Source of the DNA: Eledone cirrhosa
Lineage: Eukaryota
NCBI GenBank assembly: GCA_964016885.1
Contig: OZ024749.1
Span: 36,146,001-36,210,000, forward strand
Reading direction: 5' to 3'
Length of the DNA stretch: 64,000 bases
Shown here: positions 6,278-46,669 of the stretch, one piece after another
How positions within the stretch are numbered: position 1 is the first letter of the stretch
How the letters are laid out: each line of letters begins with the position of its first letter
Notes under the pieces: model-generated
Told to the model about the DNA's origin: nothing
What the model saw: the letters and a program-made list of their open reading frames with translations, nothing else
The model's database searches: none
Position numbers and translations under genes: made by a program

Positions 6278-6319
<42 letters not shown>

Positions 6320-6392
6320 GAGCGGAGCAAGCAATTATCAAACAATCTTTTAAATAAATTAAAAAACGATTTAAATATTCACCTGTTCTATT

Positions 6393-6472
6393 GCTGTTAC
6401 CAACGGTTTCACTAATCAAAAGATTGGAAATCCAGAGAATTTCCAATGGATAGAATTAGATCTTCAGACAGC
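6393..6472 (-). ncRNA. Type I hammerhead ribozyme motif (intact core, GUA cleavage triplet)
   Basis: Minus strand reads GCUGU CUGAAGA U CUAAU..AUUGGAAAUUC ucu GGAUUUCCAAU..AUUAG U GAAAC C guu G GUA ACAGC. Stem I GCUGU/ACAGC, CUGANGA and GAAA cores, long stem II, short stem III. Confidence 0.8.
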
Positions 6473-7168
6473 TATTTCCATACCATAAGGGTGCAAATCT
6501 CATAGTAAGTCAATATTTCGCTTACTGCCCGATGCATGCGGTCAAGCCGTTAAAGTGACGCACACGCAAAATTAAGCCACAAGTAAAAGCTGGGTATTAT
6601 AAACTTGTTGATCATGCCACTAAAAATAGCAGCGCGATACGTTTTGTTCTCTACATAAGGAGAAAAATCATAAAAGGGTATGGATATTCCAACAGGCACT
6701 AGGTATATATATATAAAAGATGTAAAATAAGAAAATTATAGTAATTAACTCACTTACTTAAATTTCACTCCAACTAATTAGTTTCTGAAAGGGGATATAC
6801 ATAGTCTCCCAATGGAGACCAAGGAGAATCCTTTCTTCATCTTTGTTGTATACATCTGTATAAATATGTTGGTAGATATACTAATTCTTTATAATTATCT
6901 CCAAATTGTTTTGTTGAGCAAAAATTTGTCTAAATTACTACTATGGTTCATAGTATTAAACTTGGCTACTGTCTTTTTAACACCCCACTCCTCACTGATT
7001 AACCTCGATTTCACGTGATTGATTCTTTTGAATTTGCCACTGACCAGGAAGGCAGTGAAGTTTTCAATGGCTTGGGATTTAGTCCTTGCTAGCTTTTTTC
7101 CATCCACTGAATTATTTTTGTATTTGATCCCTGTGTCCCCGAATCGCCAGGAATCTTAGCCGAGAATG

Positions 7169-7249
7169 ACTCCCTGATGAAGAAAGGTTCTCCATGGTCT
7201 CCATTTGGAGACTATGTATATCCCCTTTCAGAAACTAATTATTTGGAGT
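7169..7249 (+). ncRNA. Type I hammerhead ribozyme motif, stem III mutated
   Basis: ACUCC CUGAUGA A GAAAGG..AUGGUCUCC auuu GGAGACUAU..CCUUUC A GAAAC UAAUUA UUU GGAGU. The inverted copy at 6767-6841 has GUU at the cleavage triplet but is truncated inside CUGAUGA. Confidence 0.65.
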
Positions 7250-7431
7250 GAAATTTAAGTAAGTGAGTTAATTACTATAATTTTCTTATTTTACGTCTTT
7301 TATATAATTGTTCTGCATCTCTTTGTATTGAACCACAAAGTTACTAAGACAAAACCTATATCTTTGCTAGCGAAAGTATACATCTGTATAAATGTGTTGG
7401 TAGATATACTAATTCTTTATATATATATATA

Positions 7432-7566
7432 TTACAGCCTTTTACGGTTTGAGTTCAAATTCTGCTGAGGTTAACTTTGCCTTTCATCCTTACGGGGCTC
7501 AATAAAATAAAGTACCAGTAATGCACTGGGATAATTGCTGGTCTTGTTCCAAAAATAGAAACAATT
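7432..7566 (+). mobile_element. SINE family A, 5'-truncated
   Basis: Matches the family from the B-box region to the 3' end. Confidence 0.8.
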
Positions 7567-8249
7567 ATAATACCTAAGGAAACTATGCAATACAATCTAG
7601 TAGAAGGCCAGTAGCAAATCAGAACGTGTGTGTGTGATATGACTGGGGTCTCTATCATTACAATACTCAAGAAATTTCCCATGAGTTGCAACTTTGTAGG
7701 AGGTCAGCTAAACCTACATAGGTGTGAGCTGTAAATTTCATTTTCCTATCATTTCTGATGGTCTTTAACTGTTCTTTCGAAGATTACCCCTGACATCCAG
7801 GCTGTTCAACAGATATTTGCGATGGTCTGTGTACCTCAGGTAACAACAGTATATATGCCTTCAGTCACAATCGTGTGTGCACCCTAATAAATGTTATATG
7901 TACCTTTTTATTTCAATTTTCTTCAAAATCCAAACATGAACATTCTTGTAGAAAACATGTGACAGAGAGGTTATTCTTCTTGAAATGAAGTTTCTAATTT
8001 ACAATAGCTTGTGCCTTTGTGTTTCTGGTTGGGAGCAAGGGTATATATATATAGATATATATAAACAGGTGCATTTGTAGAACTACATCTCTTGCTGTTT
8101 GGATGATGATGCTTATACCATGTGTGTTATTTTATGCACAGGTATCTTGCGGAACCAGAGGCCTGTGTCCCGGGGTAATGTATATGTATATTATATATTT
8201 TTATATATGTATGACTTGATTGGAGTCTCGTTTTTCTTTGTTTACAGTT

Positions 8250-8810
8250 CATCACTATCATCATCATTATCGTCGTCATCATTGTCATCATTTTTATGTC
8301 TGCTTCTCCATGCATGCATGGGTCAGACAAGTCCTCTCCAGTACAGCATTTCTCCACTTGTCTTGTTTCTTTGTCATCTCCTTTGTGAGGTTCAGCATCT
8401 TGAGATCAGCTTTCACCACTTTCCACCCCAAGTCTTCCTTGGTCTTCCTCTTCCATGTTGTCCTTCCACTTGGAACTCTGGCACATCTTCCACCAAACAA
8501 TCATCATCCATATGCATTATATGTCTGTTGTACCAATGCAATCTTCTCTCGTGCACACTACATTTGATTCTACTTATTTGCAGTTTTTCTATCAACTTGT
8601 CTGTGCTTTGTCGTTCATGTACTCTAACATTACACATCCAGTGGAGCATGCTTAATTCATTTCTTTCCAGCCTTCACATATCGTCTGCATTCAATGCTCA
8701 TGTCTCACTACCATGCAACATTGCACTATGTACACAGGCGTCATACCATCTGCCCTTCATTCAGTGAGAGAATCGCTTTTTTGTCAACATAGGTAATAGC
8801 TCTCTGAGTT
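8250..8810 (-). mobile_element. RTE-clade LINE 3' fragment (degenerate)
   Basis: Frameshifted ORFs MLHWMCNV...RRLHWY..HIMHMDDD...GRGRPRKTW and VVKADLKML...DKWRNAV, typical of the RTE ORF C-terminus; GAT-like tail. Confidence 0.8.
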
Positions 8811-8986
8811 GGATATCCTATACATGTGTATATATGTATATATATACATATGTATGTATGTGTATATATGTATATATATATATATATCATGTTTATGTAT
8901 ATATATATATATATACATATGTATGTATGTGTATATATGTATATATATATATATCATGTTTATGTATATATATATACGTATGTATG

Positions 8987-9019
<33 letters not shown>

Positions 9020-9177
9020 CATGTTTATATATATATATGTATAAGAAATTAAGGAAGAACCAGAATTTAAATTAAATCATTTAATTGATGATTGCTTTAA
9101 TATAACAGGAATATTCATTCCTGTAATAATAGTTTCATCAGAATCTATTAAATATAAGTATTATTTATCATTTCATA

Positions 9178-9363
9178 GGGCGGTGGATTGGCAGTATCGG
9201 TAGAGGGTCGGACGCCATGCTTTCCAGCATAGTTACGTCCCTTTATGATCTGAGTTCAAATCCCGCCGAGGTTGACTTTGCCTTTCATCCTTACGGGGTC
9301 GATAAAATAAAGTACCAGTAATGCACTGGGATAATTGCTGGCGTTGTGCCTAAAGTAGAAACA
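9178..9363 (+). mobile_element. SINE family A, full length with 18-bp TSD
   Basis: ATTATTTATCATTTCATA at 9160-9177 and 9364-9381. Confidence 0.9.
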
Positions 9364-9640
9364 ATTATTTATCATTTCATATCCATAAAACAATCACAGA
9401 GATTCTATATACTCTAGTTGTATACCTATAACTCTAATTTGGTGAGTAGTATATGTGTATCAGTGTGCAATAGATAGTATATCTTTAATTACTGCATGTT
9501 ATATTTGTATCACTAATAAATTTGAATTGCGTATTTAGGCTTCCTTAAAATGTTAATGTTTTTCCAACAGTATTCGAATTGTTTACATTTTCAGGCTTCT
9601 GTGATTGTCTTGTGGACACGTGTTGTTAAATATTACTTAT

Positions 9641-9701
9641 ATTCAATAGATTCTGATGAAATTATTGTTATTTTAATGAAATGATTATCAATCAATTGAA
9701 T
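9641..9701 (+). ncRNA. Type I hammerhead ribozyme motif (AUC triplet)
   Basis: AUUCAAU-A-GAUU CUGAUGA A AUUA..UAAU GAAA U gauu AUC AAUC-A-AUUGAAU. Stem I is 11 bp with a 1x1 mismatch. Very AT-rich, so partly chance-prone. Confidence 0.6.
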
Positions 9702-9735
9702 GATTTAATATAAATCCTTATTAATCTTCATTTTA

Positions 9736-9796
<61 letters not shown>

Positions 9797-10446
9797 ATAT
9801 ATATATATATATAGATATATGGTCGGTGAGATTGTAAAACTATGTTGATTTGAAATTTACCAATTGGATTAAACTATGAACTGTCTCTTACCTATTTAGC
9901 TGTGGATTATAAAATTGAGCTTTAAAATGTTCTTTGCTTTTATATGGTTGCATTATCAACTCATCTAAACTGTTTTTATATATGTATATATGTGTGTATG
10001 TATGTGTGTAACTTTGTTTCTGTGATTCTGTTTAACATTATAGATGCATGGTGTGTGTATGTATGTATGTATGTGTGTGTGTGTGTGTATAGCGTATGCA
10101 TGCATGTATGCATTCACACACACATAAATAGTTGGGTGTTTTTAAATACCAATGTACATAGAACATTCAGACATTAACTGAATGAGCACTCAATACATGT
10201 GAGCAGAGTGTAAGATATATTTTCTGAAGTAAAGGTGGTAGTGATTTCAAAATTGTTTCTTCAGACAGAGGCAGCCTTCAAAGTCACTGCCACTTTTTTC
10301 TTTTGAAAATCTGTATAAAGGTATGTGGCTTAGTGGTTAGTGTTGGACTCACACACATGAAGTGATGGGTTTGGTTCTTGGATTAGGTTGTGTTTTGTAC
10401 TATTGAGCAAGACGCTTCGTTTCACATTGCTTTTCATTATAGTACT

Positions 10447-10630
10447 GGCGGTGGATTGGCAGTATCGGTAGAGGGTCGGATGCCATGCTTTGACGCATAG
10501 TTACGGCCCTTGCCATTCTGAGTTCAAATCCCGCCGGGGTTAACTTTGCCTTTCATCCTTACGGGGTTGATAAAATAAAGTACCAGTAATACACTGGGTA
10601 ATTGCTGGCCTTGTGCCAAAAGTAGAAACA
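10447..10630 (+). mobile_element. SINE family A nested in a family B SINE-like element
   Basis: Full family A sequence flanked by TATAGTAC; the host element continues on both sides (compare 42866-43290). Confidence 0.85.
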
Positions 10631-10923
10631 AATATAGTACCGAAGCCCTAAAGTTAAAACACCCGTGAAACCTCCTGTTAGACGCAGCCTTGTATCAGGC
10701 AAGCTAAATCTACATGTGTGTGAATTGTAACAGAATGATAGGACTGAGGCCCTTACATTAAAACATTGGAGAAACCTCCTATGAGATGTATGATGCTGGC
10801 TAAACCTACATAGGTATGAGCTGTAAGAACAACATGATACAAATGGTGTCCCCTATAGTTAAAATGCAAAAAAATCTTCTTTATACCTGCTTCTGTGTAA
10901 ATTTCATTTCTTCATACACACAC

Positions 10924-11104
10924 ACGTCGGGAAATCCCATTATAATGAGATCGACCGAAACAAATTGAGCGTTTCTTTATTACCTTGGGATTGAAAAAAA
11001 TTTTGTTGTGCTCATAATTTTTATATATTTGTTGCTGTGCTCATAATTGTTTTGGCATTGATACGTTATAAGGAAAAATTCATTATAATGGAATTTTACC
11101 TGTA
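10924..11104. mobile_element. Small Tc1/mariner-type MITE (degenerate)
   Basis: Inverted ends AAATCCCATTATAATGA/TCATTATAATGGAATTTTACCTG-TA. Confidence 0.45.
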
Positions 11105-11599
11105 TATAATATATAATATATATATATATAATTATATATATATATATAAATGATAATATAAAACAAATTTGCACTTAGAAAAAAATAAAACCAATTGGAT
11201 TGCATAATATTGAGCCTAGCTTGCACAATAACTTGAATAAACTTCTGGAAAGTTGCATGAGACAACACAACATAGATATGGGAAAACAATTAGGAAAGCA
11301 AAGAGTACACAGAAGCAAAGAATAATAAAAAGTTATGACAATGAAATTATTGTGTACAGTGCTCAGGTGCACTACAACTCATCAAAGGTGCATGTATAGT
11401 ACATAGAATAATGTACAAATGTCAGGAAAATTAATAATGTACGAGTCATGAAATACATGTGTGTGTGGAGGGATATCAAGTATAATGTTATGTATGTGTG
11501 TGTGTGTGTGTTATGCCTGTTTATAAAAATTTGCAGTATACTGTTGCTACTGCTTATTAAAAGTATGATCCCCAGCATTATTATATATTATAACTCCAG

Positions 11600-12510
11600 C
11601 ATTGCCACTAACCTTAACTCCACCATTACAACTAACCTCCACTCCAACACCATCATTAACCTCCATTCCACCAACACCAACTTCCATTCCATCACCACCA
11701 CCACCACCACCATTAACCTCCATTCCACATCCACCATCACTGTTAAACTCCACCAGTAACCTCCACCATCACTGTTAACCTCCACCAGTAACCTCCAGTT
11801 CTATTAACCTCCACCAGTAACCTCCACTACTATTAACCTCCACCATCACTGTTAAACTCCACCAGTAACCTCCACCATCACTGTTAAACTCCACCAGTAA
11901 CCTCCAGTTCTATTAACCTCCACCAGTAACCTCTACTACTATTAACCTCCACCATCACTGTTAAACTCCACCAGTAACCTCCACCATCACTGTTAAACTC
12001 CACCAGTAACCTCCAGTACTATTAAACTCCACCAGTAACCTCCACTACTATTAACCCCCACCATCACTGTTAAACTCCACCAGTAACCTCTAGTACTATT
12101 AAACTATTAAACTCCACCAGTAACCTCCACTACTGTTAAACTCCACCATTAACCTCCACCATCACTGTTAAACTCCATTATTCTGTTAACCTCCACCACC
12201 GCCACCACCACTAACCTCCACTTCCCACCACCACTAACCTCCACTTCCCACCACCACCAACCTCCACTTCCCACCACCACCAACACTACCTTCACCACCA
12301 TTAACCTCCACCATCACTATTAACCTCCACCACTAACCTCTACTAACCTCCACCATCACCACTTCTAACCACCTCCACCTGTAACCTCCATTCCACCATT
12401 ACCACCCTCCACACTATCATTACTACCCCCCCCCCCCAACCTCCACTCCACCCCCACCAACCTCCACTCCACCCCCCACCATTTCACCTCCACTCCACCC
12501 ACCTCACAAT
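11600..12510. repeat. Degenerate CTCCACC-rich minisatellite
   Basis: Repeated AACCTCCACCATCACTGTTAAACTCCACCAGT. Confidence 0.9.
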
Positions 12511-13114
12511 TCACATGTCACCAATCTCTCTCTGCCACTTATATTTTCTGTTGTGTTATTCTAAATATAAGCCAATTATATATTTTTCAAACTTTATTAT
12601 TTTTATTTTATTTTATTTTATTTCTATCTCTCTTACCCTCTCTCTATCTCCCACCCTCTCTTTCTCCTCTCTCTCCCACTCTCTCTCATCTCTTTCACTC
12701 TCTCTCCCTCTCTCCCACTCCCCCCTCTCTTTCACTCTCTCCCCTCTCTCTTTCACCCCCTCTCTCTTTCACCCCCCCTCTTTCACTCTCCCCCCTCTCT
12801 TTCACACTCTCCCCTTCTCTCTCTCACTCTCCCCTTCTCTCTCTCACACTCTCCCCTTCTCTCTCTCACACTCTCCCCTTCTCTCTCTCACCCCCTCTCA
12901 CCCTCTCTTCTGCACTCTCTCTTACCCTCTTTCCTCACATCTATTCAGTTTCAATTCCAAATTTTTCATGATTTCTTCAGATAAAACCAACAATTATTTT
13001 AGCAGACATTTATTTTATATATTGTTGTTGTTTGTGTATTTTAGTTTTTAAAAAAAAATATATCAAATCTAATATATTTGTTAATGTTAGACATTTCTTT
13101 GGTAAACAACTGTC

Positions 13115-13151
<37 letters not shown>

Positions 13152-13252
13152 CTGTATACAATCACATGTGTGTGTATGTGTATATATATATATATATACA
13201 CATCCACACATATATTTCATGTGGATATATATATATGTGTATATATTATATA

Positions 13253-13288
<36 letters not shown>

Positions 13289-13599
13289 TATACACACACA
13301 CATATATATAATATATGTGTATATATTATATATATATATTATACACACACACATATATATAATATATGTGTATATATTATATATATATATTATACACGCA
13401 CACATATATATAATATATGTGTATATATTATATATGTATATATATTATACACACACACATATATATATATAATATATGTGTATATATTATATATATTTAT
13501 ATGTATACACACATTCACACAAACACACACACTCAAAGACCAAAGTTATTCTTACAGTGTTGACAATTATATTTCCCTGAAATCTCACCATTACACAAA

Positions 13600-14676
13600 G
13601 ATAGCTCACTGGAAGTTGTGGGGCATTATGGGTAACTTGATTGGATGACTTTGCTACTGTAGAGTGGTGTGTGGTATGGTAGTGTGGATAGCTCACTGGA
13701 AGTTGTGGGGCATTATGGGTAACTTGATTGGATGACTTTGGTCCTGTAGAGTGGTGTGTGGTATGGTAGTGTGGATAGCTCACTGGAAGTTGTGGGGCAT
13801 TATGGGTAACTTGATTGGATGACTTTGGTCCTGTAGAGTGGTGTGTGGTATGGTAGTGTGGATAGCTCACTGGAAGTTGTGGGGCATTATGGGTAACTTG
13901 ATTGGATGACTTTGGTCCTGTGGTGTGGTATGGTAGTGTGGATAGCTCACTGGAAGTTGTGGGGCATTATGGGTAACTTGATTGGATGACTTTGGTCCTG
14001 TGGTGTGGTATGGTAGTGTGGATAGCTCACTGGAAGTTGTGGGGCATTATGGGTAACTTGATTGGATGACTTTGGTCCTGTGGTGTGGTATGGTAGTGTG
14101 GATAGCTCACTGGAAGTTGTGGGGCATTATGGGTAACTTGATTGGATGACTTTGGTCCTGTGGTGTGGTATGGTAGTGTGGATAGCTCACTGGAAGTTGT
14201 GGGGCATTATGGGTAACTTGATTGGATGACTTTGGTCCTGTGGTGTGGTATGGTAGTGTGGATAGCTCACTGGAAGTTGTGGGGCATTATGGGTAACTTG
14301 ATTGGATGACTTTGGTCCTGTGGTGTGGTATGGTAGTGTGGATAGCTCACTGGAAGTTGTGGGGCATTATGGGTAACTTGATTGGATGACTTTGGTCCTG
14401 TAGAGTGGTGTGTGGTATGGTAGTGTGGATAGCTCACTGGAAGTTGTGGGGCATTATGGGTAACTTGATTGGATGACTTTGGTCCTGTAGAGTGGTGTGT
14501 GGTATGGTAGTGTGGATAGCTCACTGGAAGTTGTGGGGCATTATGGGTAACTTGATTGGATGACTTTGGTCCTGTGGTGTGGTATGGTAGTGTGGATAGC
14601 TCACTGGAAGTTGTGGGGCATTATGGGTAACTTGATTGGATGACTTTGGTCCTGTAGAGTGGTATGGTAGTGTGGG
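13600..14676. repeat. 80/87-bp minisatellite, ~13 units
   Basis: GATAGCTCACTGGAAGTTGTGGGGCATTATGGGTAACTTGATTGGATGACTTTGGTCCTG... with unit lengths 87,87,87,80x6,87,87,80 and a final partial unit. Confidence 0.97.
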
Positions 14677-14689
14677 CATGTGAAATGTT

Positions 14690-14840
14690 AGAGAGGACAT
14701 CCAGCTGTAGAAATCAAGCCAGATCAGTTCCTGTATGAGCAAGGCATGGTCAGCCGACCAGACACTGCACACAACAGGACAACCCGTCTAACCCATGCTA
14801 GCGTGGAAGAACGGACGTAAAACGGTGATGATGATGATGA
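14690..14840 (+). mobile_element. RTE LINE 3' end fragment
   Basis: Near-identical to 30695-30839, ending GGACGTAAAACGGT(GAT)n. Confidence 0.8.
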
Positions 14841-15207
14841 TAGAGGTTTGAACACAGTTGATTTCTTCCAGAGTGAGGAAAAGGCAGTGGTAAAGAGATA
14901 TAGAGAAAGAATACTCCAGTTGTGAACTGGTACTTTTGTTCTTTGGTATTGAAGGAAGGAAATACAAAGTTGACCTTGTCTCTCCTTACACAAAATTCTC
15001 AATGAATGATTACAGGAATAACTGGACAGAATATTGAAAACTGATTGAAAATTCTCTTTTTCCCTCTCTTTTTCATCCTTCTTCTCCCTTTTAACATAAA
15101 TTATACTTTTAGTTCTTTTACTGTCTCCCTCTCTTACACTTTCTTGCTCATCCTCACTGCTCCAAAATAGTAAGAATTTCAGTGATATATACACACACAT
15201 ACACACA

Positions 15208-15530
15208 CGGACAGAGACGGACAGATGGAGAGAGAGAGACAGATGGAGAGAGAGAGAGAGACGGAGAGAGAGAGACGGACAGAGAGACGGACAGAGAGAC
15301 GGACAGAGAGACGGACAGAGAGACGGACAGAGAGACGGACAGAGAGACGGACAGAGAGACGGACAGAGAGACGGACAGAGAGACGGACAGAGAGACGGAG
15401 AGAGAGACGGAGAGAGAGACGGAGAGAGAGACGGAGAGAGAGACGGAGAGAGAGACGGGGAGAGAGACGGGGAGAGAGACGGGGAGAGAGACGGGGAGAG
15501 AGACGGGGAGAGAGAGACAGACAGAGAGAC
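15208..15530. repeat. 12-bp GACGGACAGAGA minisatellite
   Basis: Tandem units with block-wise variants. Confidence 0.95.
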
Positions 15531-15539
15531 ACACATCAC

Positions 15540-16150
15540 TGTGTTGTTGATGGGACAGTTAGAAAGTGTGCACATATTGTAATATGCAGGTTGGTGTCTG
15601 TATTCTCCTCAATGAGGGGCTCATGTCCTCCTTGTTCTTTTAAGTGTTGTTGCCTTGAAATTTCGGTGTTTGGTGAAAGAAGTAGGGTAGTCGTTCTCAG
15701 TGAGAACTCTAAAATAATTCCACCAATGTTTGTCACTACCCTCATTGTGCCTGGGAGATCTTATTCCGTACATAAGCCATTTTGGCTTTGTAGGGAAAGG
15801 TAGAATCATGGTAGAAAAATGTGTCTGAAAAGGTAGAATCATGGTAGAAAAATGTGTCTGCAGGTATCCTTCTTCTAAAATTTTGTGTATATGTGACTCT
15901 TAATGTAAAGTGGAGTAGAGAGAGGGACCCTGTGGTGTTTGTGTGCTCATCCACAAAATTCACATGCGTGCCTTCTTTTTCGAAGATGTTGTAAATCTTG
16001 ACAGCTTTTTCACATGATGATGTGGGCATCAGTATATCATCGATATACCTGGAGAAAAAGGAGCAAGAGCAGCAGGTGGTGAGTGCTGTATTCTCCAACT
16101 GGTCCATGTATGTGATGACCAGCAGGAGTAGAGGAACATGATATCAAAAC
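15540..16150 (-). mobile_element. Penelope-like reverse transcriptase pseudogene fragment
   Basis: FSRYIDDIL...FVDEH...SLSLLHFTL...DSTFPYKAK: YIDD catalytic motif with downstream motif spacing typical of PLE RTs; contains stops, frameshifts and a 30-bp duplication. Confidence 0.7.
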
Positions 16151-16289
16151 TAAATGGATATCTATTCTAAGAGTGGTAGAGTAAAGTTCTTTTCGTCTGA
16201 TGATTACTTCGTGTGAGCTGTCTGTGTCCAGGGAAAGTGAAGGAGGGGTTTCAGAAGTCTGGAGAGAAATCATGAAATTTTGTAGAATA

Positions 16290-16296
<7 letters not shown>

Positions 16297-16325
<29 letters not shown>

Positions 16326-17577: not shown

Positions 17578-18059
17578 TATCTGCTGATACATGGGAAAAT
17601 ATTGCTGGTGATCGTAATAAATGGTGAAAGACTGTATATGAGGGAAAAGTTGCCTTTGAGGCATCTCGAATCGCATACGAGAAAGTAAAGCGGGATGTGA
17701 GGAAGGGCATTGCTGTTGCACTTCCAGACGGCAAGGGTCCTCCTATGGTACTGTCATGCAGCGTCTGTGTGTGACTCTGCCTAAGCAAAGCTGGACTCGA
17801 AAGTCATCTTCGCAGTCATAAAGTAAGACCAGTGGTTGACTACCAGGCTGCTGTTGGAGATGCTACTCATCATGCTTGCCAAGCATGTGGTAGAGATTGT
17901 AAATCAGCAGGAGGGCTCAAGCGACATGCAAAAGTACATGAACTCGAACCACAGCCGGCTATTCCCAGTGAATGTTTTGGTTGCCGACTCTGTGCAAGAC
18001 ATTTTAGATCATTGGCTGGGCTAAAAAGCCACATTCGATCGCAGCGCTGTTAATTGCCA

Positions 18060-18122
<63 letters not shown>

Positions 18123-23916: not shown

Positions 23917-24955
23917 TATCTTTCTTTATTTGCCACAGGGGCGTACAAAATGGGACATTACAAGACGTGACGGCAGGGGTTTTACATAAAAATCATAACT
24001 TTAACATTAATAAATAACAAACTATAAAAATAAAATAACAATTGAAATCCCCAATAGGGAGGGAATGTTACTGCAGGGTTGTTTTACACCCCATGGATAG
24101 AACAACCCTCAACACCAGGAACACGTTTTGTAGGTGTTCCCGTCTTCCCTCTGTTTGTCTTCCTCAACCTACAGGTTTATATACAGAGAAGGCCCATTCA
24201 CTCGGGCCATTTTCGCCACATTCACTCACCTTTCAGCGAATTTACTGGGGTGTAGCACCTCTCTCTCTCCACTCTCACCTTCCTTCTAAAGTGGTACTTA
24301 AAGAAGGGGATAAGTTGTTGTCCGGAGAAAAAGGTGTTTGCCCTCAGCCCTTTTAACCTCGTCCACCATATTACCTCTTTCGCCATAGCCATCAGACAGA
24401 GGAAAACCACCTCTCCTTCATTCTTAAATGAAGGCAGCGGGGTGATCCTCACAATGGACTCGGCTGACAACTGGATGCGTCCCACACGTGACAGTAACTG
24501 TTCAACATAATTCCACAGGTCGGTCACCCCTGGGCACTGAACAATTGCATGCAGAACGGTTTCGATGTCCTGCTCGCATCTTGGAGAGGTCCTTTTGGCA
24601 GGATCTCTGCCAGGGTGTCCGTTCCTGTAGATTTTGTTTTGAACTGGTAGAGCTCCTTGGTAGCACTGCCAGGCCAGAGACCTCTGGAAGTTATCCATAG
24701 GTCCTGGACGGAAAGTCCTCCCAAACAGACTGGTCAGTTCATCCTCCTCGATGCCTAGAGTTTCCCCGAGAACGTCGTCGCACTTATCCTCCACTAATCC
24801 CCTATAGAATATCGAAGTGGAGTCTCCGCTTGGCTGTGAGTGCTTGAAGGCACTCGAGGTGCCAGGCACCCATTTTAAGTCTTCGCTCAGGACTGCAGCT
24901 CTGTTAGTGAGACGAGTTGTGAAAGAGCTTGTCTCACAAACGACAGCCACAACGG
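23917..24955 (-). mobile_element. L1/Tx1-clade LINE 3' fragment (zf-RVT-like C-terminal domain)
   Basis: ORF 24222-24950: SLAWQCYQGALPV...SPRCEQDIETVLHAIVQC...LWNYVEQLL...AKEVIWWTR, a CCHC-type zf-RVT signature; 3' end AATAAAGAAAGA. Confidence 0.8.
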
Positions 24956-25802
24956 TTCACCGGTCAGGAATACCTGGAGATGGCGTAGCTTCAGTGCATG
25001 TTTGTGCATCATCAGCCACGGCACATACATAGATAAACAGACTGACAGATATATAGATAGGTAGGTCTGCAGATAGAGAGATAAGCAAACAAACAGATAG
25101 GTTGATATATATATAGGTAGATACAGCTCATGACTGCATTCTTGCTGTAGTTAGTCACCATAACAACCATAGATCTGTTGATAGTGAGGGTGGGGTTTGT
25201 TGTGATGGTGGGGGTGGTAGTTAATGTAGTCAGTCAACTGTACTGATGTAATACCCTTGGTGGTGCTGTGGTGAGATCACAAGATCAAGGAGGGGAGGAA
25301 GGTCTCTCAAGATTTCATACTCATCATCATCATTGCCACCTCCACCACTGCTGTTAGCATCATCATCACTGCCACTACCATCATTATCATTATCATCATC
25401 ATCATCGTCATCACCACTGCCACCATCACCTTTTTGACCTTTCCTTCTTTGATGCAGTGGATCATTCAGGGTGTGTTAGCTAGCTGGAAGGAAAGTTGGG
25501 TCTGTCTGCTACAATATTTATCAACCCCGAAAGGATGAAAGGCAAAGAGGCCTGTGGCAGGACTTGAACTCATATGCAATTCCTTAATGACTCATGAAAC
25601 ACACACTGATATTTCAAACGATGCATGCATGCATGATCCCGTAACTCCTGATGAAGTCGAAGGGATGCTGTATTTACATATGGCCTTTCTAGGGCATTTT
25701 TTTAAACTTGGCAGAGCCTACCTTCATCTCCAGGTCTGAATACAGCATATTTCTTCCATAGAGAGCTAGGGAAAGAGATATAGAGGAAGAATCGGCCCCA
25801 TA

Positions 25803-36082: not shown

Positions 36083-36145
36083 TATGTGTGCATGCTTGTA
36101 TAAGTATTGTGCATGCTTGTATAAGTATGCATGCTTGTATAAGTA

Positions 36146-36194
<49 letters not shown>

Positions 36195-36610: not shown

Positions 36611-36808
36611 CCCTTTAGCATTTACATTATTCTATATTAACTATTATATTTACACAATTATCTCACATAATATTGAATCTATGAGATTTTGATATTATTT
36701 ATTTTGAGAACAATATCTTAACATCAGTATGAGTGGCTGGTTATGGCTGGTTTGGACAGAAAAAGGTGAGAATTCTGACTGGATGCAGCTGGTTTAAATG
36801 TTAAAGGG
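36611..36808. mobile_element. piggyBac-like MITE family D1
   Basis: TTAA-CCCTTTAGCATTTA...TAAATGTTAAAGGG-TTAA. Confidence 0.85.
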
Positions 36809-37772
36809 TTAAGGATTTAGGAAACATTACCCATTAAAACAACACCAATATAAATAATTTATATATAAACAGTTTTGTATTGTAGAACCAAGGTGGTTTG
36901 GTAAGAAAAGGGTTAAATTGTCATATATACCATCTATACATACACATACTCACACACACACACACATACCCCAGACGCATGTGTGGTGTCCTCACATGCG
37001 TGTGGGGGTATTACTTGTTTAAAATATTGGCTGAAACCAATTTGTAGCATGTATACAACTGCAACAATTAAGGTATGAGTTTGGTTGTTAGTCTAATGTT
37101 CACAGTTTAGCAGACAAACACTCAAGAATTTAAAATGTCGATTTAATTATAGTGATTGTGGTGTAGAAATTGTTGGTGTTGTTTAATTCCATAGATTTTG
37201 TAGAGAAACCATCAATTGCAGTGTTTATCTGTGGCTATTGTATATATATATATTATTAATCTCTTGGTAGTTAATGTCTGGTTTGGCTGGTGGTAGTAGT
37301 GTTGTTGTTGTTGATGTATGTCTGTGTGTATGTAAAAGTCAGCAATTGGAGTGAAAATAATTGTGACTATTCTAGATATAATCTTTTGGTAGTTAAAGTC
37401 TGGTCTAGTCTGGTCTAGTCTGGTCTAGCTGGTGGTGTTGGTGAAAGAGAGACTTTAACCACCATCCCATGCATCATGTATTTCTAGTAGGACATAAGCA
37501 ATCTCCTCTGAACACTTTAAGACCTGTAATTCTATATTGACTCCATGTAATTAAAAACTATTTAACAAACAATTTCTCTGGATGGAAATTGTGCTAGAAC
37601 ACTTGTGGTCATTGCTGTCCACTTGGTCATTACATTACAGCCACTTGATCAGTTGATTGTATGTCTAAACACCATTTTAATCTTTTTCACACCAACCCAA
37701 ACAGAACCACTTCTGGTTCCATTCAACAAAACTACCCATTTTAAAGAGTTCATATTTAAATTAAAATCTTCC

Positions 37773-37974
37773 AACTTTCAATATGTAAGGACAATGTATT
37801 TACTATTTTAGTAACTTTCAATATGTAAGGACAATGTATTTACTATTTTAGTAACTTTCAATATGTAAGGACAATGTATTTACTATTTTAGTAACTTTCA
37901 ATATGTAAGGACAATGTATTTACTATTTTAGTAACTTTCAATATGTAAGGACAATGTATTTACTATTTTAGTAA
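37773..37974. repeat. 40-bp minisatellite x5
   Basis: AACTTTCAATATGTAAGGACAATGTATTTACTATTTTAGT, perfect copies. Confidence 0.97.
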
Positions 37975-38197
37975 TGAAATAACTAATAATTTTAGTAAAT
38001 CCCTCAAAATTCTTCAATAATTAATTGAAATAGTGTATTTCATTAGAAATATATTCAGTGAAGGATTAAGATTTATAACAAATCCTTTTCAAAATGTTGC
38101 TAGTAGCCTCCCTACAATTCTTCTTGTCTTATGTTATTAAACTGTTCCTGTAACTTATTTTGAAAATAATCAAGAATCTGGAGTGATTTAATAAAGT

Positions 38198-38660
38198 CAT
38201 CATCATCATCACCGTTTTACGTCCGTTCTTCCACGCTAGCATGGGTTAGACGGGTTGTCCTGTTGTGTGCAGTGTCTGGTCGGCTGACCATGCCTTGCTC
38301 ATACAGGAACTGATCTGGCTTGATTTCTACAGCTGGATGCCCTTCCTAACACCAACCTCATTTACAGTGAGTGCTGGGTGCTTTTTCGTGGCGCCTACAC
38401 GTCCACTTTACAGTGTGGGCTGGGTGCTTTTTTGCCGTGGTACCTCCACGACCACCTTGCGGTGGGGGGTGTGGGGGCATATTGTTTATATGCTTCAGCA
38501 TGTACCCATGGGAGGTCGGGTACTCTGTATTACTGCGTGATGCCAGAAGTCACGGTCGTGTGTCATTGTCTTTGAGAGGTGTAATTGGGTAAGGTCGGCT
38601 TTTATCACCTCATCCCAGGTCATCTTGGGTCTCCCCACTCCGCGGTTTCCATCAACTTCT
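38198..38660 (-). mobile_element. 5'-truncated RTE LINE, inverted near-copy of 30375-30839
   Basis: Same peptide (EVDGNRGVGRPKMTWDEVIKADL) and 3' UTR on the minus strand. Confidence 0.85.
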
Positions 38661-38691
38661 AAAGTAACTTTCTCATTATTAAATTGGTGTT

Positions 38692-38869
38692 GAATTGGCA
38701 GTATCGGTAGAGGGTCGGACGCCATGCTTTGACGCATAGTTACGGCCCTTGCCATTCTGAGTTCAAATCCCGCTGAGGTTAACTTTGCCTTTCATCCTTA
38801 CGGGGTTGATAAAATAAAGTACCAGTAATGCACTGGGTAATTGCTGGCCTTGTGCCAAAAGTAGAAACA
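38692..38869 (+). mobile_element. SINE family A with 17-bp TSD
   Basis: ATTATTAAATTGGTGTT at 38675-38691 and 38870-38886. Confidence 0.9.
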
Positions 38870-39073
38870 ATTATTAAATTGGTGTTTGGTTTATAGTTAA
38901 CAGTGGTTCGTACATAGAATTAAAATGATAAATAAACCTTTTATCATATATTTAATGAAAGTCACTGTTTATGGTTCTCAAATAATTTTGAAAATAATCA
39001 AGAATTTGAAAAAAATTAATAATATAAGTAACTTTCTCATTATTGAGTTGATGTTTGTGGTTTTAGGCAGATA

Positions 39074-39810
39074 CTGTATACACTCGAATATAAGCTGAGG
39101 AATATGTGACCAACATATCAATGGTAAAATTAGAAGTCGACTTATATTCAGTGTCAAATTCTACATAAATAAAGTGCTAAAATATCTTGAGTGGTTATTT
39201 CACAATGAAACACTGCTTTTCTACATTTACTACATCATTGTTGGTGTTATTTATGTATTCCCTTGAAAATATTTCCAAAAAATGTTTGTATATATAAATA
39301 TCACATACTCATATATATATATATAATATATATACACACACACACACGTTTTCGCTGACAATATTCTTTCTTTCAATCTTACTACTGATTTTATTTTATT
39401 GTTCTCACTCACTCACTCTCCCTTCTCACTCTTGCTCTCTCTTTTTCTGGCTTTGTTTCTCCTCTCTTTCACTTGCTGTCTTGTACTTACTTCTACTATG
39501 AATCCCTATACAAAGTTCTCTTATTCAATCTTTTCCTTTCAAAGTACTCTTAGCATATGAGTGACCGGAAGTAAACAAACATTCGAGAAACTTGTTGAAA
39601 CTTAACATAATAGAAAATTATACACTCTAAATGACACTTACAACATTTTAAGCATCAAAGTATTAAAACTTCATAAATATATTTTATACTCATGAGAATT
39701 TCAAAACCACTCCATCTAAACCGTGTTGATTAACTGCCTTGGCTTATAAACTGGGTTTGAATTTTTGCCCATTTCTCAGGCATGCAAAAAATATATTCAA
39801 GTATATATGG
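39074..39810. mobile_element. Tc1/pogo-like MITE
   Basis: Imperfect TIRs CTGTATACACTCGAATATA/TATATTCAAGTATATATGG flanked by TA. Confidence 0.65.
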
Positions 39811-40454
39811 TAGTTATGGAAAGAGTTAAAATATTCCTGATATTTAATAACTGTAAATAAAGATGTTAATACATTTACTATCTGTGACTAGATAAAATAA
39901 CACTTTGATTAAGCAAAGATAAACAGCAGTGTAAGAAACTGTTAGGTTGATATGACATTGCTTATCTCCTGGGAAAATACTTAAAAATATTGCTATGTGA
40001 TGTTTGATAACAATGAAATATGGAGTGTGAAGAAAACTAATGATGTTCTGCATTTTGCATTAACTATTAACATCTTATACGTCATGAAACCTCATTAGCA
40101 AGACATTCTTGAAAAGTAAGAACAAATATAAAAGTCTTTATCCTAATACTACAAATGTTTACAACAACCTCTCCACTGGAAAAATACTATAAACATTTGA
40201 ATTAACAAACCACATTTACAAGACATTCTTGAAAAGTACAAAGCAGCACTATGACTGCATTACATTAAAAATCAACCTTCACTTTAACACTGCAAATGTT
40301 TACAACTATATGTCAACTGGAAAAAGGTACTATAAATATTTGAATAAACAAACCTGCTTTTAGATATTTTCCACCAAATCATTACATTAAGAGTTAACTG
40401 GCAAATAGAGTTCAATTTGACAGGAATATATCTAATTGCAGTTAATCTTCTAAA

Positions 40455-40626
40455 TGTTGAATACTATGGGATGTGAGATATATAAATGATTCATTGGATA
40501 CATCATGGATAATATATATAATATATATAGGCATTTTGGATATACCATGGATATGAGATATATACTGGTTTATTGGATACATTGTGGATTTCAGAGAAAA
40601 ATATTGATTCAATGGATACACCATGG

Positions 40627-40686
<60 letters not shown>

Positions 40687-42080
40687 TTCTGAATACATCT
40701 TAACTATAGAGATAAATATTGGATGTTTGCAGACATCATGGGATACCAGGTAATAATACTGGTTCATTGGATATACCATGGATATCACATACATTGGTCT
40801 TTTGGATACATCATGGATAGCACAGATAAACATTGTTCAAAACATCATGGATATCAAATATAAATATTGCTTCTATGGATACATAATTCTTAATAAAGAT
40901 ATATTGCCATTTTTGGATATACCATGGATATTGGATATAAGCATTGCTCCATCGGCTACACCATGGATATCATATATATATATATGGTTTGTCCCCAAAG
41001 TAAGGGTAGTGATGTTTTAAATGTATATTAGATGTACATGAAATTACAAGTGATCTCCTTCAAAATACAACCCTTGGGATATTACACAGTGGTTCCAACG
41101 TTTTTCCATTGATCATAGTAGTACTAAAAGTCATTTTCTGTGAGTGTCCTTAGCTTGTCGGTTACCATCTGTACATTTTCCACAGTCCCAAAATGATTAC
41201 GCTTCAACTTTGATTTCAACTAATGGAAGAGGTAGAAATTAGAGCTAGAAATTCTCTAATTGATAGCACTGTGTGCGTGCTAGTTTTGCATAAATTTTTT
41301 GCATTTTGTTGAAATTCTGGGAATTACATTTTTATCCAAGCCTGTTTCTTCTGCAATCATCCTAACACTTAATTGTCGATATTTTACCATCGCCACTTTC
41401 ACCACTTCTACATTTTGTTCATTTGTTGATAAGATTGGTTTTCCAGAAAGATCATCATTTTCAACATATTCTCAGCTCTTTTGGAAAGCTTTGTGCCAAT
41501 TAAAAGCCTTCTCGATAGAGTGGCACATCTATAAGCTTCTGTTAAAGAATTGTTTGGTGGCAGATTTGTTGAGTTTCACATAAAATTTGATCATGTACTA
41601 TTGTTCGATATTTTCCTGTATCACAAACAACAGAGGTTATAAACACCTCTGTACACAAACAGCAATAATGCACGATTGATTCAATCAATCATGTTGAAAC
41701 AAGTATGTATGTGCAACCAAGGGCATAACCAACATGCCTATATACATCAAAGATGCTGCGTTCTGTCAATCATAGGAAAATCAGTACCCTTACTTTTTGG
41801 ACAAACCTCTTGTGTGTGTATATATATATACACACACATGTATATATATATACACATATATATATATATACAGATATATATATACACACATATATATATA
41901 TATATATACACACACACGTATATGCACAGGTCTTTAGGATACACCATGGAGATAATTTATATTGATACACTGTTGATATCACAGATATATATATATATGT
42001 TCAATGAATGCACCATGGATATCAGAGATAAATACTGTTTGCTTGGATACTGTTTGTTTGATGAGATAAACATTGGCTCA
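40455..42080. repeat. Degenerate ~40-bp tandem repeat (GGATACACCATGGATATCAGA core) hosting the mariner insertion
   Basis: Core recurs on both sides of 40984-41812. Confidence 0.7.
40984..41812 (-). mobile_element. Internally deleted mariner transposon
   Basis: ~28-bp TIRs GGTTTGTCC.AAAGTAAGGGTA.TGAT. Minus-strand remnants FNWHKAFQKS*EYVENDDLSGKPILSTNEQNVEVVK...LSVRMIAEETGLDK (HTH) and RWNHCVISQGLYFEGD (C-terminus). Confidence 0.85.
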
Positions 42081-42509
42081 TTTGTATATTTGTGATTCGG
42101 AGGGAAAAAACAACTAAAAAAAAAATACACACAAAAAAAAACCCCCATACATACACACACACACACAAAATATACTTTTTAATAGATTAAGATGAGATTT
42201 TAGTCTAACTCCTACAGACTTTATCAATATCAAGTTAATTCCACTCCAAAATAGATGACGTTTAGACATTTTCTAGTAACCAAACATTGAAATTCGAACA
42301 GTTTGAAGTTAATCAATATCCAGCAATCATTTTAAAATCAGAATTTTCGAGAATTTTTTTTCCCTTCTTTCTTCTCTGCTTCCCATTTAAATCTGTTGCC
42401 TTAATTAATACTTTTTAAAAATCTGCTATTTTATTGTTATATAATGTTGTCTCTTTATTTTCTTCTTTATATATTTTTGTTTTTCTAATGCCATTAAGCC
42501 ATTTATTAA

Positions 42510-42745
42510 CCCTTTCATTACCACATTTCTAATAAAAGACATTGCCTATGTTTTAAATAATTTTAAAAATAATCTAGAATTTAGTAATATAACTTTCTTA
42601 TTATTAAGCTGGTGTTTGGAACAACCTAACAAATGTTCTTACTTAAAATTGATGGAAGGTTTTTAGATAATTATAAACACTATAAAATAAACAGCTTTGT
42701 ATCATAGAACCAGGTATGGTTTCAGGGGGTTTGGTATCAAAAGGG
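42510..42745. mobile_element. piggyBac-like MITE family D2
   Basis: TTAA-CCCTTTCATTACCA...TGGTATCAAAAGGG-TTAA. Related copies near 2640-2805, 19945-20187, 23090-23650, 36375-36913, 60913-61145, 61150-61365 and 62270-62886. Confidence 0.75.
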
Positions 42746-42865
42746 TTAATATAGTGATAGAATTTGCTGCTAATCTACCAACATTTGTTGGTCCACATTG
42801 GCTTCACCTATTGCCATATATCTGTTGTAAACTGTTGGTAAAAATTAATTCTTCCTCACAGAATC

Positions 42866-43290
42866 ATGTGTGATTGAGCAGTTAGTGTCTTGGACTCATG
42901 ATCATAAAGTTATGGGTTTCATTTCTGGATTGGATGGCATGTAGTGTTCTTGAACAAGATGTTTCATTTCACAGTGCTTTTCATTATAGGACTGGGATCC
43001 CCCATCATTAAAGCACCCTAGAAGCCTTCCATGATATGCAACCTCATATGTTTGATAAACCTACATAGGTATATGTATGAGCTATAACAATAACATTATA
43101 GGATTGGGGTCCCTATAATTAAAATGCCCAAGAAACTCCATATAAGGTGCAACTTCATATGAGGTTTGCTAAACCTACATAAGTGTGAACTAATAGGACT
43201 GAAGCCTCTATCATTAACACACCCCAAGAAACTTCCTACGAGATACAACCTTGTAGGAGGCCAGCTAAACCTACATATGTGTAAATTTTG
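42866..43290 (+). mobile_element. SINE-B-like head followed by tandem ~90-100-bp units
   Basis: tRNA-like head, then repeated ATAGGACTGGGG.CCCT.TCATTAAAA..AGAAAC..CTAAACCTACATA units. Related stretches at 10320-10870, 20560-20880 (-), 7640-7735 and 61738-61990. Confidence 0.55.
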
Positions 43291-44020
43291 TTGCATTATC
43301 TTTTTAACAGAACTATGTTTTTCTCCATTGGTCAGCCATATTTAATTCCCAATTATTTTTGTTTTAAGTGATATTTTTTAATTATCAGAAAATAATTAAT
43401 TAATGGCTACAAAACATTTTGATCTTCTGTGAAACGCTAATGTTTTATGGAAGTGTTTTGTATTTATTTACTGTTGTTGTTTGGAGTAGTGCTGGTGGGG
43501 TGGTGGTGGTGGTGTTGTAACAATGTTGTTGTTGGTAGTGGTGGGTGTTGGTGATGGTGGGGGTGCAGCTGGTGGTGGTTGTAGCAATGTTATTGTTGTT
43601 GGTAGTGGTGGGTGTGGGTGATGGTGGGATTGCAGCTGGTGTTTGTTGTTGGTAGTGGTGGGTGTTGTTGGTAGTGGGTGTGCTGGTGGTACTAGTGGGT
43701 GTGTTAGTGTTCTAGATTCTCTTTATATTGATGAGGATGGTAATGGGGATGAAGATAAGTATTGGTGATGATGAGGATAGATTCATCATCTTTTTTCTGT
43801 TTTCCCTGTTAGTAAGTGTTGGACAGCTTATCACAGACTGAGTCAGCACTTAGTCATAGCCACTGATCATCTCACATACATTCTAGAGCAGAGGTTCTCA
43901 AAGAGGACGCTACCACCCCCAGGGGACGCTGGGGCCTAAATGGGTGGTAGAGATGATATAATAGTATATTAAGTATCAAATGATACATATATATATATAA
44001 ATATAGTAAAATAAAATATA

Positions 44021-44838
44021 ATAATAATACTATTTATAGTTATGTATATAGTATAAACAACCATAAACAGGAAGGCCAGTAATTTCTTAATAACCTTATT
44101 ACCAGTAAGAGAAATAGCTCAATGTATGAACATCAGTTGTTTTACAGAGCAGTTAAATCAATAAATTATACAATTATCAAAGTTGTGTTCAAATCATTTA
44201 ATAGCTGACAATCGTTTCTTCCAAATTCTCGTTTGGAGTCATCGGAGCATTATCAATGTTTGCACATAATTAGCCTCCTATTCAACTGAACAATAATATA
44301 GATACATATATATTGATGTTGTGAGCAACAGTTTCGTATTTACAGGGTGGAATGGATGTGACATATATTTTACAAGAATTGTACAATAATTGTACAAACA
44401 TTCAAGTTCAAATTAAATTAAAATCAAAAGCACGGAGTGGAATACATGCAACAGTTAAAACAAGGGAATAGTCCAAATATTAAAGAGGCATTGAGGACCC
44501 AGTTTTGATAAAGGAAGAGTGCGATAACAATTCATTTGCAGGCGTGTGGATAGTGTGACTGCGTAAGTCATATACATGAGAAGGAGACAAGCAAAGCTAT
44601 TATACATATATAGATGAATAAATACTGCAGTTAAAGCAAATATGTTAATGTATTAGAGTCTATGGTGGATGTTGATGTTGACATCAATTTATATGTATCT
44701 ATATTATTGTTCAGTTGAATAGGAGGCTAATTATATGTGCAAACATTGATAATGCTCCGATGACTCCAAACGAGAGTTTGAAAGTAACAATTGTCAGCTA
44801 TTAAATGATTTGAACACAACTTTGATAATTGTATAATT
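44021..44838. mobile_element. Fold-back hammerhead-bearing insertion with 17-bp target-site duplication
   Basis: ~158-bp inverted arms 44162-44319/44681-44840; TAGTAAAATAAAATATA duplicated at 44004-44020 and 44839-44855. Confidence 0.65.
44195..44258 (-). ncRNA. Type I hammerhead-like motif (CCGAUGA core variant, GUC triplet)
   Basis: Minus strand reads CAUU GA UAAU GCU CCGAUGA C UCCAAA cgagaa UUUGGA A GAAAC gauu GUC AGC U AUUA AAUG. The inverted copy at 44754-44798 (+) has GUAAC in place of GAAAC. Confidence 0.65.
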
Positions 44839-46669
44839 TAGTAAAATAAAATATATTTATTTATATATAGCATATATTATATTATTTATTATATATAAAT
44901 TAACGATTTTATTCATTATATATTATTTACAGTTTGAGTGTAGGCAGGGCTCTGGAAATAGGGGTGGGGGCACTGAGGATATGTGGCGGTGAGGGGGGGG
45001 GGTTTGGCCTAAAACGTTTGAGAACCTCTGCTCTAGAGTGTACTGGATGCATTGTATCATGGCACCAACACTAGGGAGGTTGTCATGTCTTTGACACAAT
45101 TGAAGAACTCACTTGACTCTTATTTACCAAAGGTTTAGAATAGCAGCAGATGGCACAACAATCTCTCTTACTAGTTACTGGTATTCTATGAATTTTTGGA
45201 ATTTAGTGGAAGTAGGAATGTCACCAAAGATCTAAATATTTTGTGTGTAAAACCATTATTAACTTTTAACATCCTGTAATGATTTGGCAGAATATATCCA
45301 ACAAAACAAGTTTCATAGTATCTTTACTGGTGGATAGATTGTTGTGGAAATTTGCAGTATTAGAGTAATTACTTTAAATTTTAATGTGATGTAGATATAG
45401 TGCTGTTTTGTATTTTTCAAGAATATTTTGCTAATGTGGTTTCATATGGTACAGGACATTAAATGTTGATACTAATCAAATAGTAACTATTATCAAGGTT
45501 TGTAAAGACCTGAGTTGTTTGGTAAATTAAGGAACAAGCATTCTTAAATTCTCTTTGGGTGGTGCTGATTCCAACATAGATTATCTGGTATTGCTGTATA
45601 AAATTCTCTGGGTAAATTTGTAACCTTGTGTTGGTATCTTTGGTAGATCAGGCTTGTATGTGTTTTATTTTTGGTATTGACTGTTTTTTTGTAAGTGGGG
45701 TTACACATTCATAACCCTTTTCAAATCAAAGTGCTTGAAACTAGCTCTGTTTATTTATTTATTTTCCAAACAAAACTGGTTAATTTACAAAGCATTGGAA
45801 AAATTTGAAATTATGTTAGCCTCAATGTAAATAAACATAAATGATAGTTGAATAAATGAAGTTAAGTACTCCCTAGTGCAGCAATGGGGAACCTGTGGCC
45901 TTCCTTGCCATTCTTTGTGGTCTTTTGAAAGAATCAAAAATTTCCAACAAAATTTTGATTTTTTATTAATATGTTTTTGTCTATCTCTTATTATTTTAAT
46001 TTAACCCAAAAGATGAACATACTTTAAATATCAAAGAGTGAAAGAAAATTCAATAAAATAATCCACACAGAGATAACCAGAATTAAAAACTTAGTAAATC
46101 ATAAGGACCATTTAAAGTTAACTCATGTTGCCTATCAGTTATCATTCTCCTTGATATGTGTATGTATGTATTATCATCTTCATTGTTTAACGTCCATCTT
46201 CCATGCTAGCAAGGGTTAGATGGGATTGTCGCACTAGAAGCAAGTTTGGTTGGGTGACTGTCTCGCTCGTATAGAACTGTATCTGGCAGGTTTTTTACGG
46301 CTGGATGCCCTTCTTAACACTAACCACATTTACAGTGTGGAATACATACATATATAGATATATACATACACAGACATACATACATATGTGCACATACACA
46401 AACATTTAGTTACTATGGCTGGTATTACAATTGTTAGAGTTGCTACTGTATCGATGTTGTTGTTGTTATTACTGTAGCAGTATGTCGACAATGTCTGTAG
46501 ATGTAGTCAGTGTCATACACCATTGTTGTTGTTAGTGTTGTTGTAACAGTGTTGTTGTTATAGCAGCGTTATGTGGTTATTATTGTAATCATATGTCAAC
46601 ATTCTCTTTAGGTGTGATCAATGTGATGTATGTGGCTATTGTTGTAGTGGTATGTAAACAATGTTTAGG

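Follow-up and report, generated by a model that had tools for sequence, protein, structure and literature searches.

What are the ribozyme-bearing fold-back elements of the Eledone cirrhosa genome, and which enzyme writes them? The question was raised by a 64,000-nt stretch of contig OZ024749.1 (assembly GCA_964016885.1, positions 36,146,001 to 36,210,000), hereafter called the window. A preliminary description had noted there three fold-back elements with hammerhead motifs in their inverted arms, a fourth motif nearby and a reverse transcriptase (RT) remnant of a Penelope-like element (PLE), and had proposed that several non-coding retroelement families colonised the locus. The elements are labelled here A (6710-7420), B (9046-9982), C (44021-44838) and D (6317-6703). 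We read them as aged, 5'-truncated Penelope-type insertions, C being the end of a coding element and A and D pieces of tandem units, all likely written by a Hydra-type RT-endonuclease that primes at two fixed sites on the element RNA. The probability of this reading is put at about 0.6.

Hammerhead motifs and inverted arms

Both strands of the window were searched with a descriptor of the minimal type I hammerhead, and 20 dinucleotide shuffles of positions 1-48400 served as controls. Four motifs were found (7174+, 9653+, 44245- and 6467-), against none in any shuffle, so that the PLE-type hammerheads can be taken as genuine. The fourth motif, reported at 6393-6472, is among them and is the hammerhead of family D. 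Rfam, a search that had also been advised, gave no hammerhead family among the 150 of 162 matches listed for the window (E<=5). A first, strict descriptor requiring the first pair of helix II had zero matches in the window, because helix II is mismatched at exactly that position.

The motifs have the core CUGANGA...GAAA...NUH with helices I and II, except that C has CCGA where CUGA is expected. They share with published minimal PLE hammerheads a short helix I, a long helix II and a palindromic helix III (PMC4209133). Helix III cannot form a hairpin in the monomer but pairs with itself as a duplex between copies, as expected of dimer-type motifs (PMC4209133). With copies from families A, C and D, duplex energies of -5.8 to -11.3 kcal/mol were obtained; pairing was weak for B (-1.9 kcal/mol) and for the window's own copy of A (-2.0 kcal/mol). 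One bulged base and a G10.1-C11.1 pair characterise the published consensus (PMC4209133), whereas at the base of helix II most families here carry a 1x1 mismatch (59 of 59 copies in A, 30 of 32 in D, 16 of 22 in C); the B family is G-C paired. The text of Fig. S3 in PMC4209133 seems to give a mismatch for two entries, its extracted form being ambiguous, and three published Hydra hammerheads likewise show, by eye, a U.U mismatch at this place (PMC8557442).

Covariation, another check that had been advised, was supported by compensatory changes, in helix I as well as helix II, among subfamilies of 70-86% identity, the sequences being few and related. Across A subfamilies of this identity over the whole unit the core was retained and helix II altered in compensating pairs. 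In six A sequences, also few and related, 97.7% of cells could pair and 3 cells had changed on both sides; one of 500 shuffles scored as high. A relative of D at 71% identity showed a G-C to A-U swap in helix I and a rebuilt helix II. RNAalifold recovered helices I-II for A and helix II only for C; the three-way junction was not recovered.

Inverted arms are present at all three loci named for them, those of A over 124 nt at 95% identity (6710-6833/7183-7306), those of C at 90-93% identity (44153-44330/44670-44849) and those of B at 77-84% identity and only in pieces (9046-9170/9624-9734). The elements are larger than had been described, and one arm of each fold-back has an overlooked tail of 100-250 nt. 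Neither does each arm hold a motif: one arm per fold-back has it complete and the other has it broken. The cut falls inside the ribozyme core in the left arm of A, GAAA-helix III is deleted in the left arm of B, and GTAA replaces GAAA in the right arm of C. Even the complete motifs have aged, with a helix III change in A and a helix II deletion in B. In a transcript of the fold-back the intact motif can pair with the antisense arm over 71 of 81 nt (A) or 44 of 46 nt (C), and such copies therefore probably do not function as ribozymes.

A coding family and two tandem non-coding families

Three copies of family C, at loci L072, L077 and L089, extended upstream, and the latter two reached the end of a GIY-YIG frame after 1.3 kb. 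The window copy is 90-93% identical to L178 and L179, which run into GIY-YIG and RT frames; at L178 pieces of RT lie beyond the GIY-YIG frame (Pfam GIY-YIG E=2e-4, just under the cut-off). For C, linkage in cis to an RT and GIY-YIG open reading frame (ORF), which had been suggested as a check, was thus found, and this continuity of sequence identifies C as the 5'-truncated end of a coding Hydra-type PLE. A young sister family (L283-L285, L288) contains dozens of identical-scoring 832-codon open frames and has likely been active recently; its hammerhead has a CCGAAGA core and an A.G mismatch. An intact sister, P0002, encodes 819 aa in a hammerhead-ORF-hammerhead unit of 4199 bp. By eye, against PMC8557442, P0002 has RWR (for RWK), DKT, a CxCX5C linker, CxxC and CxH, no CCHH and a C-terminal endonuclease (EN). 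By these protein motifs C and P0002 are provisionally assigned to the Hydra clade, and a resemblance to published Hydra sequences was seen by eye. The clade, which includes Hydra-1_Obim, has the same motifs, hammerhead and TA-rich targets, and is generally <3 kb (PMC8557442), whereas here we found a 4.2-kb unit, a 3' untranslated region (UTR) of 1.3-1.4 kb, a CCGA core and dozens of full-length open frames. By eye, Hydra-1_Obim is a different family from the one here (PMC8557442).

Family A consists of 528-nt units and family D of 467-nt units, both arranged head-to-tail. An ORF was reached in none of the 48 A and 51 D insertions sampled, where long arms ran on into the previous unit; no RT plus GIY-YIG ORF was found in cis in these insertions, and a profile search detected no ORF remnant in either family. 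The name non-coding, given to all the families, therefore suits A and D and fails for C, which joins a GIY-YIG/RT ORF. As ORF-less tandem monomers with one type I hammerhead apiece, A and D correspond to the non-LTR (long terminal repeat) retrozymes of metazoans (PMC7229834, bioRxiv 10.64898/2026.07.22.740005). The published ones have canonical hammerheads, whereas A and D have minimal hammerheads and PLE-type ends, and are known here from DNA alone. Locus L292 holds an array of 16 A-subfamily units plus an inverted arm, again with no ORF. Among its 15 complete units, most differences amount to 14-39 bases; three unit pairs differ by only 1-6 bases and therefore point to local duplication.

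A and D might instead be the pseudo-LTRs (pLTRs) of rare or lost coding PLEs, with no mobilisation in trans and with arrays that grew later as satellites by unequal crossing-over. The local duplications of L292 would fit, C proves that a motif-only stump may conceal a coding parent, and such a route has been argued for Xenopus (bioRxiv 10.64898/2026.07.22.740005). We nevertheless hold this explanation to be unlikely, given the 0 of 48 and 0 of 51 extensions into an ORF, the entry of long arms into a previous unit and the negative profile search. In addition, the arrays share the same two end points and bear an inverted arm, which argues that multimers were inserted as such.

Three apparent leads on A and D were dropped. 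An A subfamily that seemed to start at unit position 460 had three of its four copies as duplicates of one segment; an apparent N-terminus of a Hydra ORF within the A unit was equalled by shuffles and its ATG was not conserved; and BLASTN connected neither A nor D with the two-frame PLE family of L153-L177. Loci L184, L185 and L192 are one genomic segment in three copies on contig C1, with the same A insertion in each. Families A and D were covered by two contig sets of one sample, which have no bearing on RNA.

Family B gave 42 matches. Its relatives are mostly 68-87% identical, and B is therefore old. About 600 nt of its upstream sequence is non-coding, and neither an ORF nor a tandem unit was seen within that stretch. 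At its proximal end point a microsatellite lies inside the element in two independent copies (window 9735-9820; L050), as if this point seeded or attracted repeats.

The RT remnant is genuine, with 45% identity over 125 aa to P0001, an 860-aa RT/GIY-YIG protein encoded in 3127-bp tandems. It could not be tied to the four elements: its family has a different hammerhead, with a bulge-type helix II, and its DNA matches none of A, C and D. The young P0001 family (L141-L152, 3127 bp) occurs in tandem and inverted arrangements. In another PLE family (L158-L163) there are two frames that overlap, and the 3' region is microsatellite-like; the descriptor finds no hammerhead there.

Insertion ends and pairing of arms

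The 3' ends of insertions lay at two points past the cleavage site, a proximal and a distal one (+62/+175 in A, +87/+189 in D, about +50/+190 in C). Most lay beside (TA)n, and 54 of 94 inserts had it on both flanks. After removal of three duplicate loci, both ends were on-site in 17 of 26 two-armed inserts of A, and 16 of these 17 joined a short to a long end (p=1.4e-4 versus 50:50). For D, the same was true of 16 of 17 inserts with both ends on-site, among 23 that were two-armed (p=1.4e-4 versus 50:50). In C, counted by hand, the pairing was found in 10 of 10, L073 and L081 (an off-site end) and L065 and L071 (complex) being omitted. Pooled over the three families, 42 of 44 two-armed insertions had one short and one long end.

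The 5' ends of arms were scattered, and most arms passed through the cleavage site, so that the template was probably uncleaved or re-ligated RNA. It is not claimed that ribozyme cleavage sets the 5' ends: in a biased sample, 3 of 77 A arms and 3 of 76 D arms began at the site, versus 1.2 and 1.3 expected. Of 23 inserts, 22 had arms nearer to each other than to the median other copy, and in 10 the partner was the nearest copy of all, a pattern consistent with a single template or a single source family.

This resemblance above average between arms would also be expected if the inverted arm arose by fold-back self-priming on the first complementary DNA (cDNA), or on an antisense template, and not by a second target priming. 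Self-priming has been proposed for rotifer PLEs on the evidence of junction palindromes (PMC3846280). However, at L008 (A) and L080 (C) the two arms have no sequence in common; neither contains the other, and such inserts cannot be obtained from a fold-back copy. In unit coordinates the 5' ends of the two arms bear no relation to each other, and the longer arm may be either of them. Self-priming is therefore quite unlikely as the source of the second arm.

The insertions show 5' truncation, partial tandems, an inverted copy and a one-sided tail, as do those of endonuclease-bearing (EN+) PLEs, which also have (TA)n targets and a pLTR hammerhead (PMC3846280, PMC8557442). Tails are 30-40 bp there and about 100-200 nt here, and the pairing of short with long ends was counted here.

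A bulged hairpin at the end points

Comparison of tails revealed a hairpin that starts 0-7 nt past the proximal end in A, C and D. Its basal stem is of 4 bp (GYUC/GARC), and a 2-nt bulge separates this from an upper stem. Past the distal end lies a second copy in A, a reduced one in the intact sister of C and a looser form in D; one copy of B has a version with a long loop. The hairpin was counted in 30 of 59 motif copies of A (37 reach far enough), 7 of 22 of C (9 reach far enough) and 6 of 32 of D (13 reach far enough), over a background of 0.013 per 100 nt. Two of five published Hydra consensus ends contain it by eye. A literature search of partial coverage returned no publication on it. 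The hairpins are likely to be binding or start signals of the enzyme.

Could another PLE clade, of the P0001 type or the two-frame family of L158-L163, mobilise A and D, the hairpin being convergent or unrelated? In favour are the abundance of such families, some of which have long open frames, and the shortness of the hairpin. However, it was absent from all six P0001 copies, whose helix II is of the bulge and not the mismatch type, and its offset from the end points is equal in A, C, D and the sister of C. We consider mobilisation by such a clade very unlikely. That the arms are terminal inverted repeats of foldback DNA transposons or miniature inverted-repeat transposable elements (MITEs), with motifs by chance, can be dismissed despite the inverted ends and TA targets, since fixed terminal repeats around a fixed internal segment were not found and inner arm length is variable, many copies are one-armed, units lie in tandem, an RT ORF adjoins C, motifs are absent from shuffles and the helices covary.

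Copy number in the genome

Exact matches to core patterns of 22-25 nt numbered 2156 for A, 2111 for C and 117 for D, with none for reversed controls; dispersed multi-copy families with the inverted-end layout of PLEs had been correctly anticipated. The background was estimated from forty 10-kb stretches at round coordinates (400 kb in total, weighted to large contigs). Motifs were present in 11 of the 40 stretches, 27 in all and grouped at 13 sites, against none in five shuffles. About two sites are thus expected per 64 kb, and the window has three at the same stringency, so that a special colonisation of this locus is not apparent. The Poisson range from 13 sites in 400 kb extrapolates to ~0.5-1.7 x 10^5 hammerhead sites in the 3.0-Gb genome. 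The 316 motif matches pooled from sampled loci cluster into 15 multi-member groups. At L278 (G000:C28:110000001-110010000), hammerhead tandem units of ~422 nt, without the bulged hairpin under the descriptor, fill all 10 kb, and a hammerhead array of 310-nt units lies at L171 5364-5984.

Table 1. Features of the ribozyme-bearing insertions and the RT remnant in the window.
Feature	Position	Strand	Description
Family D insertion	6317..6703	-	single 5'-truncated arm of 467-nt tandem non-coding unit; ends at proximal point, +87 after cleavage site; in (TA)n
Hammerhead D	6393..6472	-	CUGAAGA core; long helix II with U.U at base; palindromic helix III
Family A inverted arm	6710..6841	-	ends at proximal point (+62); cut within ribozyme core
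Family A long arm	6848..7420	+	more than one 528-nt unit; ends at distal point (+175); tail 7307-7420
Second bulged hairpin of A unit	6898..6919	+	immediately 3' of distal end point
Hammerhead A	7169..7249	+	CUGAUGA core; A.A at helix II base; helix III palindrome with one decay change
Bulged hairpin of A	7310..7333	+	GUUC / stem / UU / GAAC; immediately 3' of proximal end point
Family B inverted arm	9046..9400	-	hammerhead broken, GAAA-helix III deleted
Abundant short repeat, presumably SINE-like (short interspersed nuclear element)	9178..9366	+	later insertion in B left arm; 18-bp target-site duplication 9160-9177/9364-9381
Family B long arm	9405..9982	+	decayed hammerhead; microsatellite 9735-9820 at proximal end point; tail 9820-9982
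Hammerhead B, decayed	9649-9693	+	in long arm; helix II deletion
RT/endonuclease remnant, broken	15531..16143	-	different PLE family (P0001 type)
Left target-site duplication of C	44004..44020	+	17 bp
Family C long arm	44021..44690	-	3' UTR/pLTR of coding Hydra-type PLE; bulged hairpin 44117-44150; tail 44021-44153
Hammerhead C	44203-44248	-	CCGAUGA core; in long arm
Family C short inverted arm	44681..44838	+	hammerhead broken (GTAA); ends at proximal end point
Right target-site duplication of C	44839..44855	+	17 bp

Elsewhere in the window, a 24-bp unit forms a tandem array at 48596-60001 (~478 copies, 95% matches) and an 80-bp unit another at 13669-14675 (~12 copies, 97% matches). A C2H2 zinc-finger frame (17775-18050, +) and a zf-RVT frame (24225-24956, -) are probably remnants of long interspersed nuclear elements (LINEs).

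Discussion

Tandem units, two discrete 3' ends paired one of each, TA-rich targets, the ORF link of C and the placement of the hairpins are the observations that a mechanism must accommodate. We suggest that a Hydra-type RT-endonuclease would cut both strands of a TA-rich target, and that one DNA end would be primed at each of two fixed, hairpin-marked sites on the element RNA. The two cDNAs would halt at scattered points, and their joining back to back would produce the fold-back. Multimeric RNA, either uncleaved or re-ligated, would serve as template, and the hammerheads may cleave only as dimers through their palindromic helix III, probably with the help of protein. A and D would be carried in trans. 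The fold-back would be a by-product that masks its own ribozyme.

Several of these steps have precedents in vitro. With an anole PLE, two internal start sites were used, both strands were cut and extended, and ribozyme cleavage was dispensable and protein-assisted (PMC11167929). In this element, Poseidon PAc, the tail is likewise defined by two internal start sites downstream of the hammerhead, AT-rich DNA is nicked on both strands and the template is uncleaved RNA. Its starts lie at an AC-rich stem-loop without homology to the target, whereas the ends here are on TTTA/TATA runs just 5' of the bulged hairpin (PMC11167929).

Some results weigh against the proposed mechanism. For the anole enzyme in vitro, the start site did not differ between strands (PMC11167929). 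No coding element bearing the own ends of A, B or D was found, and the link of A and D to Hydra is drawn from a short hairpin and the helix II mismatch. Two other families of the mismatch type had no hairpin under the same descriptor (0 of 16 copies in fam2, 0 of 3 in fam4), and three of five published Hydra ends have no clean one, two of them stopping early. Pfam RVT_1 gives no match to P0002, whose clade was assigned by motifs. The pairing counts omit nine A pairs and six D pairs with one end off-site. Finally, in the natural A dimer the hammerhead fold lies ~24 kcal/mol above the minimum, helix III not being counted.

Inverted arms plus a tail are published PLE anatomy (PMC4209133, PMC3846280, PMC8557442), and dual motifs on opposite strands 100-700 bp apart had already been reported (PMC4209133). 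Because this architecture was known, the finding as first stated is an ordinary one. The derivation of retrozymes from PLEs has also been proposed (bioRxiv 10.64898/2026.07.22.740005, PMC7229834); the available portion of that preprint has no molluscs in its sample and names no cis signal. An octopus Hydra family is in print (PMC8557442 supplement), and Penelope is among the expanded repeats of cephalopods (PMC8967140). Our literature searches returned PMC8557442 as the sole relevant paper on octopus hammerhead ribozymes, and nothing on twin priming of Penelope pLTRs or on hairpins of non-autonomous Hydra-clade elements. What is described here are new families of known kinds, to which a variant ribozyme and a candidate start signal are the testable addition.

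The remaining value is mechanistic, the questions at stake being how inverted ends form in PLEs and what moves the retrozymes of animals. The near-strict pairing of short with long ends and a hairpin common to coding and non-coding families lead to testable predictions, and the genome supplies non-coding substrates along with a driver ORF that is intact (P0002). By extrapolation a large hammerhead load is also suggested, none of which was flagged in the Rfam matches listed for the window.

A further step is advanced tentatively, at a little under even odds: the paired bulged hairpins may be a recognition code of Hydra-clade enzymes, from corals to cephalopods. A two-headed RT-endonuclease would bind one hairpin per subunit and start a cDNA from each, the two growing from opposite strands at a cut (TA)n target, so that the short+long fold-back is written; A and D would persist by keeping both hairpins. 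If so, a defined RNA signal would link an animal retrozyme to the specific enzyme that mobilises it. The genome in question has roughly 10^5 hammerhead sites, and its dozens of driver copies with open frames would be fit for reconstitution.

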